Origin: Shigella phage ESh32
Length of the DNA stretch: 64,000 nt
Sequence record: ON528742
Strand: one strand, 5' to 3'
Shown here piece after piece: positions 6,866-12,402 of the stretch (the stretch's first letter is position 1; the number at the start of each line of letters is the position of its first letter). Both the position numbers and the translations under genes were made by a program. Under the pieces are notes generated by a model. The model did not search any database and was not told the DNA's origin. It saw only the letters and a program-made list of their open reading frames with translations.

Positions 6866-7522
6866 TTATTTAGCCCTTCCTAATATTCTGGCCGCCTGAG
6901 AACATATTGATTCAAGGCGGTCATTACTTATATGATCATTTCTATACCAGTACATGGTTATTGTTCCAGCATAGATGTTATCCAAATTAAAATATGGACA
7001 ACTGTACATGTAGTTTATTTCGGGAGTAGGCTTTTTAGTTGGTAAAAAAGCAAATTTTGAGTTGGAATAATAATGACGTCCATTTAAATGAACTGTATAT
7101 TCATCCATAGTTTTATCAACAGGATATCCTCCAAGTGATTTTTCACTTATTGTTGAAGGTAATTTTCCTTCATATGCTATAATATCAACAAAATAGTTTA
7201 AGTTTTTAGGGCGGAAAGAATACACCGCACTAAAGTCTGCCTCAGATGATATGTGAACTATCTGGAGTTGTTCCAGGGCGACAGATTCAAAGCGTGCGTT
7301 TCTTTCCTTTTCAATAATTTCACTGTATGTTTCATACTTTGATTGCTTATAGTACTCAAAGAAACTATCTCCCCTATACCAAACAATCGCCATCATAAAT
7401 AAAAGAATTACGACAGCTACCCGGGAAGCAAGAACTTTCCCGGTAGCGTTATCTTTGAACAAGCGATCTAGAACACCAAATAGAATATCAGAGGGCGAAA
7501 ATGATATTCTAGGTGCTGCCAT
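6866..7522 (-). CDS. t: holin T (218 aa)
   Basis: 218 aa with N-terminal TM (VAVVILLFMMAIVWY) and large periplasmic domain; position 3' of gene 38, convergent with asiA as in T4. Confidence 0.9.
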   Translation of the reverse strand: MAAPRISFSPSDILFGVLDRLFKDNATGKVLASRVAVVILLFMMAIVWYRGDSFFEYYKQSKYETYSEIIEKERNARFESVALEQLQIVHISSEADFSAVYSFRPKNLNYFVDIIAYEGKLPSTISEKSLGGYPVDKTMDEYTVHLNGRHYYSNSKFAFLPTKKPTPEINYMYSCPYFNLDNIYAGTITMYWYRNDHISNDRLESICSQAARILGRAK

Positions 7523-7552: not shown

Positions 7553-8329
7553 TTATACTCTTGGACCATATATTGCTCCAACATTTATCCACGTTGGAGC
7601 AGACCCTATAACAGCATAACCAGCATCGCCGCCATTATATTCAGATCCTTGACCGCGAATATTGCATCTACCTCCCGCGGAACCTACTTCACCACCGTTT
7701 CCACCATTATAGATACCATTCACGGATCCTGAGCCAGGTGCAGAAATAGTACCGCCAGTCGCTCCTGATTGCATATCAATAGATCCGCCAGGTGCACCAA
7801 ACGGACGCCCACCGCCGCCGCCAAAGGTCAATCTCATTTGTGAAAAAGGAGAATAATATCCGCCGCCGCCGCCGCCACCGCCGCCTGCAATAGCTCCACC
7901 ATTATTAATTCTTAGTCTCCCACCAATATCGTTTTGAATACAATGACCTCCAGCTGAGCCAGGACTATTGCTACCGCCATTACCGCCACGACCATACATC
8001 GTTACGCCGTGTATATTCAACTGAACATATTCATTGGGTGTATCTCCATACATGAAGAATAAAGGAACATCTTTAGAATATGATACTAAATCTCCAGTGA
8101 TATTAAACACTATAGGTGCACTACCTGCCTCAAAACATCTATCTCGGAACCATTGACCATTGAAGTTATGGTCTGCTCCAAGCGTGTGAATTATTTCAAC
8201 AGATCGACCTATCATATTACTCATCCAAAACGGAATTCCCATTCTCAATCTCTGCGCGGCACCACCCATCCAATTTTGTCCTGTATTAACTACTGCAGAC
8301 GATCCTACCCACGGTCCTGTTACTGCCAT
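7553..8329 (-). CDS. 38: tail fiber adhesin gp38, T2-type (glycine-rich, ~258 aa)
   Basis: Start ATG at 8329 with GGAGG SD (track start 8341 is TTG); conserved N-term, poly-Gly tracts (GGGGGGGGG, GGGGG) flanking variable segments typical of T2/T6-type gp38. Confidence 0.85.
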
Positions 8330-8341
8330 ATAAACCTCCAA

Positions 8342-8355
8342 GGGGCCGAAGCCCC
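8342..8355 (-). promoter_or_regulatory. intergenic RNA hairpin between 37 and 38 (minus-strand GGGGC-UUCG-GCCCC)
   Basis: Perfect 5-bp GC stem with UUCG tetraloop immediately upstream of gp38 SD; no U-tract so not a canonical terminator. Confidence 0.35.
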
Positions 8356-8360
8356 TCTTA

Positions 8361-11300
8361 TTATTTTAACAATGATTTAACTAATGCTTTAAGTTCTTCA
8401 ATTTCTGATTTAAGTTCCGCAATTTCTGCAGTATGCTCATTGATTGCAGCTGTATTTAAACCAATTACACCGTTATAGTTCAAACGAAGTAAAGCTTCAC
8501 CATCCGGGTCGCCTTCAACTAATTCTGGTAAAATAGCTTGAACTTCTTGAGCAATTAACCCAGCGTTTGGTTCCCATTTCTGATTGCCTTCTTCGTCCGT
8601 TCCACGTTTCTGCATATAAGTGTAACCGTTAATTTTAGAAAGCTTCTGAGAAGCATTTTCAAATTTAACGAGGTCTTTTTTAACACGAATATCAGAACGG
8701 ACATAAACATCACGGACAAACGTTGAATAACTATCATTTGCCTGAACGAGATGCCCATGAGAAACGATAGCTCTTCCAACTTCTGTCCAAAAAGCACCGG
8801 TTGAATCCCAAAGCCCAGGATGAGATTGATAGCCTGCTCCCCAGTTTGCAATATGTATACCATTGGCAACCATATTGATTCGGCCGTCACCGCCATGAAC
8901 TAACCCAGTGTCATTATCACCAATAACAACGCATGCGCCTGTCCATGCAGGGTCACCTCCACCAGCTGATAATCTTACTCCAGCTTTAACCATGTCAGGA
9001 ACGTACATGTTTCCATTATGGTGGAATTCGAAGATAGCTTGCGGATCGCTAGCATTTTCCTGATTACCTACACGGATAATACCTTGTGCCCAGTTATTAG
9101 TAATGCGTCGCATACCGAAATCAACACCAGATACGTACCCTTCATTAGTAATAACAGATTTTCCTTTAATAATAGGATAATAGCAGTCATTGCCGACACT
9201 ACCAAAATCCACAAATATAGGAGCTTCTTGATGCCATTGGTTTCCCCAGTCACCAGCTTGATGCGCAGTCCATTGAGTCCCATTTATATGGAGACGATCG
9301 CGGTTAAAGTTAAATGTTGCAGCACCTTGTGGAATCAGCGCGATTTCACCAGTAGAGTTAATTTGCACAGCCCCATTGGTTTTATAGTTGTAGAATGATA
9401 CGGTATTATCAGCGCCGCCTTTACCAATATACCATTGATTTTCTCCACCGCCAGTAGAAAGAAGGTAGCTTGCATCAGTCGCTGAAGGCGCAGCTAAGTT
9501 AATAGCATCAGAATCTCTTCTAATAATCAACTTGCCGGTCATCGTGTCGCCTTCTTTCGAAACACGAGTCGCAATAGCATCGCGAATATTAGTTACGTCG
9601 CCAGCTGAAGTAAACGTTTTCCAGATATCAGACCAGATATTACCATTGCGAGCAATAGTAGCTTCACCGCCGCCGACAGCAACGTTATCTGGGAAGTTAA
9701 CAGTACCGTCTTGATTAAAACGAGACGTATGGCCTTGTGAACCATCTTCTTTCAGATGATGAATAACGAATGTACCCGAATTAATTTCAGTACCTAAAGA
9801 CCAAACGCATTTACCGTTTAAGAATTTCTGTTTAACAATAGGATAATATTTGCTTACAGCATCATCATCGATTTCCTGGAAAATAGGAGCCGCTTGAGCA
9901 TATTGAATGTCATAACCGCCGGCACCCGCTCCATGACCAACAAATTTAATATAACCGTTAGCAGCGAACGTATTGTAACTTGATTGTAAATCTGGAATAG
10001 TAACTTTACCAGTATCTAAAGCCATACTAAACGGGCGAAGTGGACCGATATCGCCGTGTTTACCTTCACCGTAAGCAGTTGGAATAATATGAAGACTACC
10101 TTCTGAACGTCTAAAAATGGCTCCATAATCTGCGTTCCAAATACGAAGCGCATTCACTGCTCCAGATGAAATTTCGCCTGTTGTGTGAACTCCTCTATTT
10201 CCAGCAGTAACACCAGATGATTCAAATGAACCGTTAACGTTCATTTCTACTTCACCTGTTGTAAGTCTTTGAATATAGCTCATCCAACTAGTTGCATCAG
10301 AAATTTCCATGACATTTTTACGATTACCTACGCTAGGATTAGTAAACGTATTGCCCCAAACGGAAATTGTCATATTATCAACTGAACTGCTACCAGTTGT
10401 GTTACCTCTAAACAACAGCGTAGAAGAATTATTTCTACCATCGATATTAACCGAACCACCAATAACGTCAATATTGCCTGGAGTAACTAACAAACCGCCA
10501 TGAGTATTAATGTTTGTGGTACCCTTACCGCGGAAATAGTGATGATAGTTACCGCCTTGATAATATCCTAAAAGAGTTTGACCGTCGCCGTATGCGTTAT
10601 TATCATGGTAAGTAACAACAGTGGCCAAAGCATAGTTTTCTGTCGGCGGCGTTGTCATAAGAATCCCGTCCGGAGAATAACCCATAACCATTTTTCTAAG
10701 GCTTTGTGTTTCCGCAGGGCCGTAGATGAAAGTTCTTGTTCCATTGTTTACTGTATGAAAATATCCGTCCTGATGCCATTTAAATCCGGTGTCATTATCA
10801 CCAAGAGCAATTGAGGCCGTTCCTAATTCAGAATATCCTTTAGAGCCACCCGGAAGACCTACAGAAATAGAATGACCGGCTTTCAATCCACCTGACCAGG
10901 TAAACGACCAAAGATATGCGTCAAGTCCATCTCCAGCATACCAAGTTATTCCATCATTATCTTTAACTTCATGGAAAATGCCAGAACCGACTGCATTACG
11001 CATAATACGGAGATGGTTAATAGCCGTTTCGCTTTCTGTCAATGGAGTGTTATTTGCTAATGAATAGATATCATAATCTCCTGTCTTCTTCCCATTTGTA
11101 ATAACTTTGTCGGTCAGAATTTGCGGAGACGAAATAGATTTCCATGCTGATACTTCGGGTGAAGTAAATAGGCCACTGCCTGAAAATGCATAAGTGCTTT
11201 CGCTACCAGCGGCGTAGTCTTGAACCCTGATATTAAGTACTTGTGTAGTTAAACCATCATTAGCCGGGGCATAAATGATTCCACGTTCGCGACTATTGCC

Positions 11301-11675
11301 ATCGAAAAAACGAACATGCGCTGTACCTGAGCTTTTTGTAATAAGTTCTCCGCCTTCAGTCATAATTTGCCCGGCGGCAATAATATCGCGAGTTACTCGA
11401 GCAATACCAGTTAAATTAAAATTACCTGTCTGAGTGAAGGTGCCATTTAAAGTATAATCGCCAGTTTGGTTATAATTACCTGTATGAATAACATTCCCGT
11501 CAATACTACCGCCTTTAGCAAAACCCAGATCAATAATATTTCCTTGGTCATCTTTAGTAAAAAGTACACGGTCTTTTAAGTTTATAGCCAATTCACCTTC
11601 GGCTAATACTGAAGCGGCAGGACGTGCTCCTGCAGTTTTGCTTCTTTTAAATTGTATTTGTTTTAAAGTAGCCAT
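8361..11675 (-). CDS. 37: long tail fiber distal subunit gp37 (1104 aa) with C-terminal intramolecular chaperone domain
   Basis: [39 protein letters not shown]... conserved gp37 N-terminus; C-terminal ~111 aa carry S74-like motifs (SDIRVKK...GLIAQEVQ...LPELV). Confidence 0.95.
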
Positions 11676-11683
11676 AAGTCCTC

Positions 11684-12340
11684 TTAATAATAGCCGAAAT
11701 CTTGAACAGAATCCTTAATAACAATTTGGTCAAATCGTGGAACATGTGAGGGTTGAGATGCAGGATTCTGTGAAAAAAGGTTTGGCGCAGTTAAATTTCC
11801 TGTCATAGTATCTCCAGAGCGTAATACCCTAGAGTTTGCGTTTGCTGTAACAATATTTATTGCTCCATCAACATAATCTTTCCGCGTAAGGTCATAATTA
11901 TTTACTGGTGATAACGAAGTTACACGGATTTGTGATGCTTCAATTACGCCCTTTGAGCTAATATCTCCATTTCGTGCGTTAATTACTACAGTTCTACCTG
12001 CTGTTCCTTGTGATGATTTAAAACCAATACCATACCACGAAACAATATCCATATTTGTAGTATCATACGTGGCACTATCACCAGGACCAGCAAAAATACC
12101 ATTATCACCTGACCCTGCGCCAGGAACAGTCATTCCTTTATTAAAAATTACTTTATTTAAATAAGTACCGCCATTAGCTTTAGAAACGAAATCGTTATCA
12201 GCAGCTTGTGGTTTATTATATTCTGAATATATTTTAAATGATTTATAGAGTACATCGTCACCGGCTGGATTCAATGGAAAATTTCCTTGATGCCAAATGA
12301 CAGAGCCTCCGGTTGTTGAACCTACTTTTAAATCAGCCAT
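11684..12340 (-). CDS. 36: long tail fiber distal connector gp36 (218 aa)
   Basis: MADLKVGSTTGGSVIWHQGNFPLNPAGDDVLYKSF...; size and synteny. Confidence 0.9.
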   Translation of the reverse strand: MADLKVGSTTGGSVIWHQGNFPLNPAGDDVLYKSFKIYSEYNKPQAADNDFVSKANGGTYLNKVIFNKGMTVPGAGSGDNGIFAGPGDSATYDTTNMDIVSWYGIGFKSSQGTAGRTVVINARNGDISSKGVIEASQIRVTSLSPVNNYDLTRKDYVDGAINIVTANANSRVLRSGDTMTGNLTAPNLFSQNPASQPSHVPRFDQIVIKDSVQDFGYY

Positions 12341-12371: not shown

Positions 12372-12398
12372 AAGAAAAAGGGAACCCGAAGGCTCCCT
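12371..12398 (-). terminator. probable terminator after gene 35 (minus-strand GGGAGCC-UUCG-GGUUCCC + U-rich tail)
   Basis: 7-bp stem (one G-U pair on minus strand) with UUCG loop followed by CUUUUUCUUU. Confidence 0.5.
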
Positions 12399-12402
12399 CA
12401 AT

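Follow-up and report, generated by a model that had tools for sequence, protein, structure and literature searches.

The long-tail-fiber locus of Shigella phage ESh32 raises the question of where the distal fiber protein, gp37, ends once it is mature, and of how its tip becomes available to the gp38 protein encoded next to it. The window analyzed here is the whole 64,000-nucleotide (64 kb) stretch of record ON528742, and all coordinates are positions in that window. Four neighboring genes on the minus strand frame the question:

6866..7522, minus strand: holin gene t, a same-strand neighbor of gene 37
7553..8329, minus strand: gene 38, an adhesin of the T2/S16 type, 258 aa (PF05268, 240 bits; PF21721, Gp38_N, 76.6 bits), with its N-terminal attachment domain at ~8210-8329
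8361..11675, minus strand: gene 37, the long tail fiber distal subunit, an ORF of 1104 aa with the TAA stop at 8361-8363
11684..12340, minus strand: gene 36 (PF03903)

This g36-g37-g38-t neighborhood is the canonical long-tail-fiber locus of the T-even phages, and the phage is an RB27-like Tequatrovirus. The g37-g38 DNA, which is matched by 648 phage records, is 100% identical to that of Shigella phage ESh34 (ON528744.1) and 91.9% identical to that of RB27, the closest annotated relative, in which CDSs of equal length are annotated as long tail fiber distal subunit (37) and tail fiber/host specificity protein (38). The ESh34 record, a Tequatrovirus genome, is flagged as UNVERIFIED and comes without gene annotation. 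For gene 38, the program-called ORF opens at TTG 8341 (262 aa), 12 nt too far upstream; the Gp38_N profile does not start until its residue 5, and gp38 of RB27 is annotated with 258 aa, so that the true start is the ATG at 8329 (8327-8329), ahead of which a GGAGG Shine-Dalgarno sequence is found at 8335-8339 (minus strand).

The original prediction placed a chaperone domain of the S74 type in the last ~111 residues of gp37, and this placement was borne out. Translation of 8361..8696 (minus strand) gives S994-K1104 (111 residues, beginning SDIRVKKDL) followed by the TAA stop, and all three peptides quoted in the prediction are present. The domain and its parts are as follows:

8364..8696, minus strand: C-terminal intramolecular chaperone (IMC, Peptidase_S74), S994-K1104, 111 aa, with release by autoproteolysis predicted (Pfam PF13884, PDB 6F45, Foldseek 7dc3 and 3gw6)
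8517..8696, minus strand: core S74 profile match, residues 994-1053 (profile positions 1-57 of 58)
8367..8477, minus strand: long C-terminal helix of the IMC, residues ~1067-1103, presumed to be a trimerizing coiled coil (AF2 helix)

The HMM search that had been proposed as a check recovered PF13884 (Peptidase_S74, "Chaperone of endosialidase") at 47.8 bits (E = 1.8e-12) with the whole of gp37 and at 52.7 bits (E = 5.2e-14) with the C-terminus alone, where the match begins exactly at S994; the curated cut-off of this family is 22 bits. In RB27 gp37, the S74 match occupies the identical position (994-1053). The domain sits C-terminal to a Gp34_trimer-like segment (residues 450-550, 33.8 bits), to a gp37_trimer-like segment (residues 725-774, sub-threshold) and to a tip homologous to the trimeric β-helix of S16.

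Among solved structures, the gp37 C-terminus is best matched by the gp37 chain (chain A) of the gp37-gp38 tip complex from Salmonella phage S16 (PDB 6F45; residues 953-1104, E = 4.8e-39, phmmer against PDB sequences). Apart from 6F45 and a weak match to 7dc3, this single-sequence search returned no others, and it missed endoNF (3GW6), T5 pb1 (4UW8), and GA-1 gp12 (3GUD). A profile built from 18 homologues retrieved 6F45, the ICA domain of MyRF (7dc3; E = 1.8e-6) and the phage tail fiber 8jov (E = 1.1e-5), and it, too, missed those three proteins; the founding S74 members were reached only via Pfam and the fold search, the latter through 3gw6. The IMC alignment is shallow because the homologue search with the 111-aa IMC retrieved just 23 proteins, for the most part prophage fragments that are short or incomplete, and five of the alignment members are without the cleavage site (being truncated or chimeric).

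The fold was assessed with an AlphaFold2 (AF2) model of residues 981-1104 (a 124-aa query; mean pLDDT 79.4), built as a single chain although the domain functions as three intertwined chains. The model has strands at 37-60 and then a C-terminal helix at 87-123 (37 residues, pLDDT 86-96), in keeping with the fold characteristic of the family, in which β-hairpin "tentacle" or donut elements precede a long helix that builds a trimeric coiled coil. In a Foldseek search, its best fold match is the MyRF ICA domain (7dc3; E = 9e-7, TM 0.65), in which the equivalent coiled coil drives trimerization (PMC8326128), and the endoNF "Intramolecular Chaperone" 3gw6 is matched with a probability of 0.99, at ~12% identity in the structural alignment. 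The last ~35 residues of gp37 are a heptad-like helix, a type of sequence prone to spurious matches (e.g., to DivIC, sub-threshold), and the S74 resemblance could on that ground be taken for a chance, low-complexity match at the end of a plain structural fiber. The Pfam match (994-1053), however, is located ahead of the coiled coil, with a score more than double the cut-off of the family; this score, the match to 6F45 and the fold match, which is independent evidence, refute such an artifact, and we consider its likelihood negligible. We conclude that gp37 ends in an intramolecular chaperone of the S74 type (residues 994-1104), for which four of five defining features were found (the profile, the Ser-Lys dyad, the fold, and the extreme C-terminal position).

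Whether this domain is released depends on the residues at its first few positions, for which two further features are listed:

8694..8699, minus strand: predicted scissile bond R993|S994, with S994 (codon 8694-8696) as the nucleophile (6F45 alignment and the S16 site, PMC7917993)
8679..8681, minus strand: K999, predicted to act as general base in the Ser-Lys dyad, with the spacing S-x4-K (aligned with MyRF K592 in 7dc3)

A conserved Ser in an SD-R-K context had been anticipated here, and it is found as S994-D-I-R-V-K999, aligned with the proven dyad of MyRF. The gp37 sequence SDIRVKKDL falls opposite SDRRIKKDI of S16, and in the 18-homologue profile the Ser and Lys positions share columns across 6F45, 7dc3, and 8jov; 7dc3 has an Ala opposite S994 because the crystal construct is the S587A mutant. 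In MyRF, both S587A and K592A abolish cleavage, and the equivalent residues of endoNF are S911 and K916, a Ser-Lys dyad (PMC8326128). Among the alignment homologues that span the site, S-D-x-R-x-K is kept in all (12/12).

In S16, according to the account of Dunne et al. (2018) given in PMC7917993, the last 113 residues are the IMC, which is autocleaved between two serines (DLNVS^SDRRIKK), and this autocleavage exposes the docking surface for gp38 (PMC7917993). The fPS Tequatroviruses have DVYIR^SDGRLKI at the junction, where cleavage was predicted by the authors (PMC7917993). As gp37 of this phage has DVYVR^SDIRVKK, R993|S994 is the predicted scissile bond, and mature gp37 is therefore predicted to have 993 residues. 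Autocatalytic release after trimerization, together with a need for the domain in fiber folding, is known for S16 (PMC7917993), T2/T6 (PMC3157838), and MyRF/endoNF (PMC8326128), and by homology gp37 of this phage would likewise cleave itself.

A genuine S74 fold might nevertheless not be self-cleaving, the IMC then staying attached or being removed by a protease of the host or the phage. At P1, this gp37 has Arg (R993, in DVYVR^S) in place of the Ser of S16 (DLNVS^S; PMC7917993), and the 1986 work on T2, as it is cited in PMC3157838, established that processing occurs and not that it is autocatalytic. The R^S junction, however, matches that of the fPS phages with their predicted cleavage (PMC7917993); S994 and K999, at S-x4-K spacing, are aligned with positions at which mutations stop cleavage in homologous proteins (PMC8326128); S-D-x-R-x-K is kept in all full-length homologues; and an IMC that stayed attached would occupy the surface needed by gp38. 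Given the conservation of the entire junction motif along with S994 and K999, we regard a genuine S74 domain that does not cleave itself, or that is cut by another protease, as improbable.

Removal of the IMC would leave the following segment at the end of the fiber:

8697..8819, minus strand: mature distal gp37 tip, residues 953-993, ending in DVYVR (homologous to the interdigitated domain of S16 that docks gp38)

These 41 residues align with residues 54-93 of 6F45 chain A, the identity within the stretch being modest. The role of the gp37 tip in gp38 docking is described in PMC6851490 and PMC7917993, of which the former (the CASP13 paper) does not mention the IMC. The partner is likewise of the S16 type: gp38 matches S16 gp38 (6F45 chain D) over its full length (E = 7e-53), and its residues W7, W20, and W34 align with the three docking tryptophans of S16 gp38.

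That gp38 is an adhesin here, unlike the chaperone of T4, had also been part of the original prediction, and it agrees with the GP38 and Gp38_N domains and the three Trp of this protein. The T4 tail fiber locus has the same gene order, but gp37 is a mosaic relative to T4 gp37, with homology over residues 1-680 only (35% identity; the first 60 aa are nearly identical). A profile scan of T4 gp37 (NC_000866) found no S74 domain, with Collar and Phage_fiber (His-x-His needle) domains instead, and the profile scan of gp37 from this phage found neither Collar nor Phage_fiber. T4 gp37 has gp38 and gp57A as its chaperones. T4 gp38 is unrelated to the adhesin gp38 and has a weak resemblance to lambda Tfa-type tail fiber assembly proteins; it acts as a chaperone and is not part of the virion (PMC9608196, PMC6851490). 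A fiber of the T4 type, in which gp37 is the adhesin and gp38 the chaperone, was rejected for this phage on the adhesin-type gp38 and the gp37 without Collar or Phage_fiber, the T4 proteins showing the opposite. The T2/S16 arrangement is the commoner of the two (PMC6851490, PMC3157838, PMC9608196).

Residues 37-136 of gp38 are almost identical to those of the OmpC-binding gp38 of PP01 (PDB 9v85), and the glycine-rich, hypervariable half (~residues 150-240) is strongly divergent from it. Given this divergent half, the receptor may differ from that of PP01. Adhesins of the RB27 type are T6-like and use Tsx (PMC3157838).

This analysis shows the S74 domain with its fold and its two dyad residues, together with a tip homologous to that of S16 and gp38 as its partner. 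We consider it very probable (roughly 93%) that the gp37 IMC cleaves itself after trimerization and bares the tip for gp38 docking, a reading in which self-cleavage and the sequence of steps are both drawn from homology. After translation, the IMC would use its body and the coiled coil at its C-terminus to align three gp37 chains in register, and this would nucleate the folding of the upstream trimeric β-helical fiber. Once the trimer has formed, S994, activated by K999, would attack the R993-S994 bond, and the 111-residue IMC would leave each chain. Mature gp37 (1-993) would then end in the DVYVR strand and present a flat triangular tip, on which one gp38 would dock by its N-terminal helical bundle, through the three conserved tryptophans found there. 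The host receptor would be recognized by gp38, through its receptor-binding loops, and not by gp37. That the released IMC trimer, a stable coiled-coil particle made at three copies per fiber, has a second role in the infected cell, such as timing the loading of gp38, being detected by a host defense system or interfering with one, strikes us as very improbable, although the IMC subtypes of the T-even phages might reflect such a role, beyond lock-and-key matching with gp38.

Among the known systems, the S16 fiber resembles this one in its β-helical tip, S-D-x-R-x-K-K-D junction, IMC body, coiled coil, and downstream polyglycine gp38 adhesin. The IMC has 111 aa here and 113 aa in S16 (PMC7917993), and it is ~60% identical to the IMCs of S16-like phages, whereas the upstream fiber shaft, the gp38 hypervariable loops, and the hosts (Shigella/E. 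coli versus Salmonella) are different. T2 and T6 belong to the same genus and have the same g36-g37-g38-t gene order; their gp37 C-terminus is removed proteolytically and the protein is then capped by a ~260-aa gp38 adhesin (PMC3157838). For T2, gp37 processing and gp38 capping are attributed in PMC3157838 to Drexler, Riede and Henning (1986, J Mol Biol 191:267), and this T2/T6 work was done before the S74/IMC family had been recognized.

Among the T-even phages, both the gp37 C-terminus and the gp38 N-terminus come in different sequence subtypes (PMC3157838). A tblastn search with the IMC matched 1168 phage records, of which 178 have at least 95% identity, ~40 have 60-80%, and 948 fall below 60%. 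This spread fits a report in which the gp37 C-terminus falls into discrete subtypes that co-vary with those of the gp38 N-terminus (PMC3157838).

Outside the long fibers, the comparison extends to one phage protein and one eukaryotic protein. The IMC of endoNF, the endosialidase of phage K1F, is the founding Peptidase_S74 member (PDB 3GW6, Schulz et al., 2010). It resembles the gp37 domain in Pfam family, fold, S-x4-K dyad (S911/K916), and the trimerization needed before cleavage, which for gp37 is predicted; it differs in that its cargo is a tailspike sialidase and not a long fiber, and no adhesin docks on the exposed end. An Arg of the upstream β-helix of endoNF (R897) also contributes to cleavage, and no counterpart to it was identified in gp37. 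MyRF offers the best fold match, with its Ser and Lys in register, but it is a eukaryotic membrane-bound transcription factor, from which a DNA-binding trimer is freed by cleavage; there is hardly any contact between its stalk and the ICA domain (PMC8326128).

The model proposed for gp37 is already known from Drexler 1986 (T2) and Dunne et al. 2018 (S16; PDB 6F45; Structure 26:1573), and the IMC reading is routinely applied to new Tequatroviruses (PMC7917993). The feature is a correct re-identification of the tip maturation published for most T-even phages (T2, T6, S16, RB27-like). Since ON528744.1 is unannotated, the predicted mature end of gp37 (R993) and the start of gp38 (ATG 8329) can now be annotated. 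For host-range engineering or the production of recombinant fibers, the IMC should be kept in the construct, and a mature gp37 of 993 residues, capped by gp38, would be expected.

Searches for RNA features found no tRNA genes (ARAGORN) and no Rfam families at the gathering threshold within the 64 kb window. Two hairpins with a UUCG loop were noted:

8340..8357, minus strand: intercistronic hairpin GAGGGGC-UUCG-GCCCCUU with a UUCG tetraloop, between the g37 stop and the g38 Shine-Dalgarno sequence
12378-12399, minus strand: second UUCG hairpin, GAGGGAGCC-UUCG-GGUUCCCUU, with a U-rich run after it, a short way upstream of g36

The g37-g38 hairpin begins 3 nt past the g37 stop and abuts the g38 Shine-Dalgarno sequence (-17.8 kcal/mol, z = -2.66), and it is also listed as terminator-like on the opposite strand. 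Stable intercistronic hairpins with CUUCGG were first described in T4, and the g37-g38 hairpin resembles them; it may serve in transcript stabilization or in modulation of g38 translation. The hairpin at 12378-12399 (minus strand) resembles a terminator that would separate g35 from g36.
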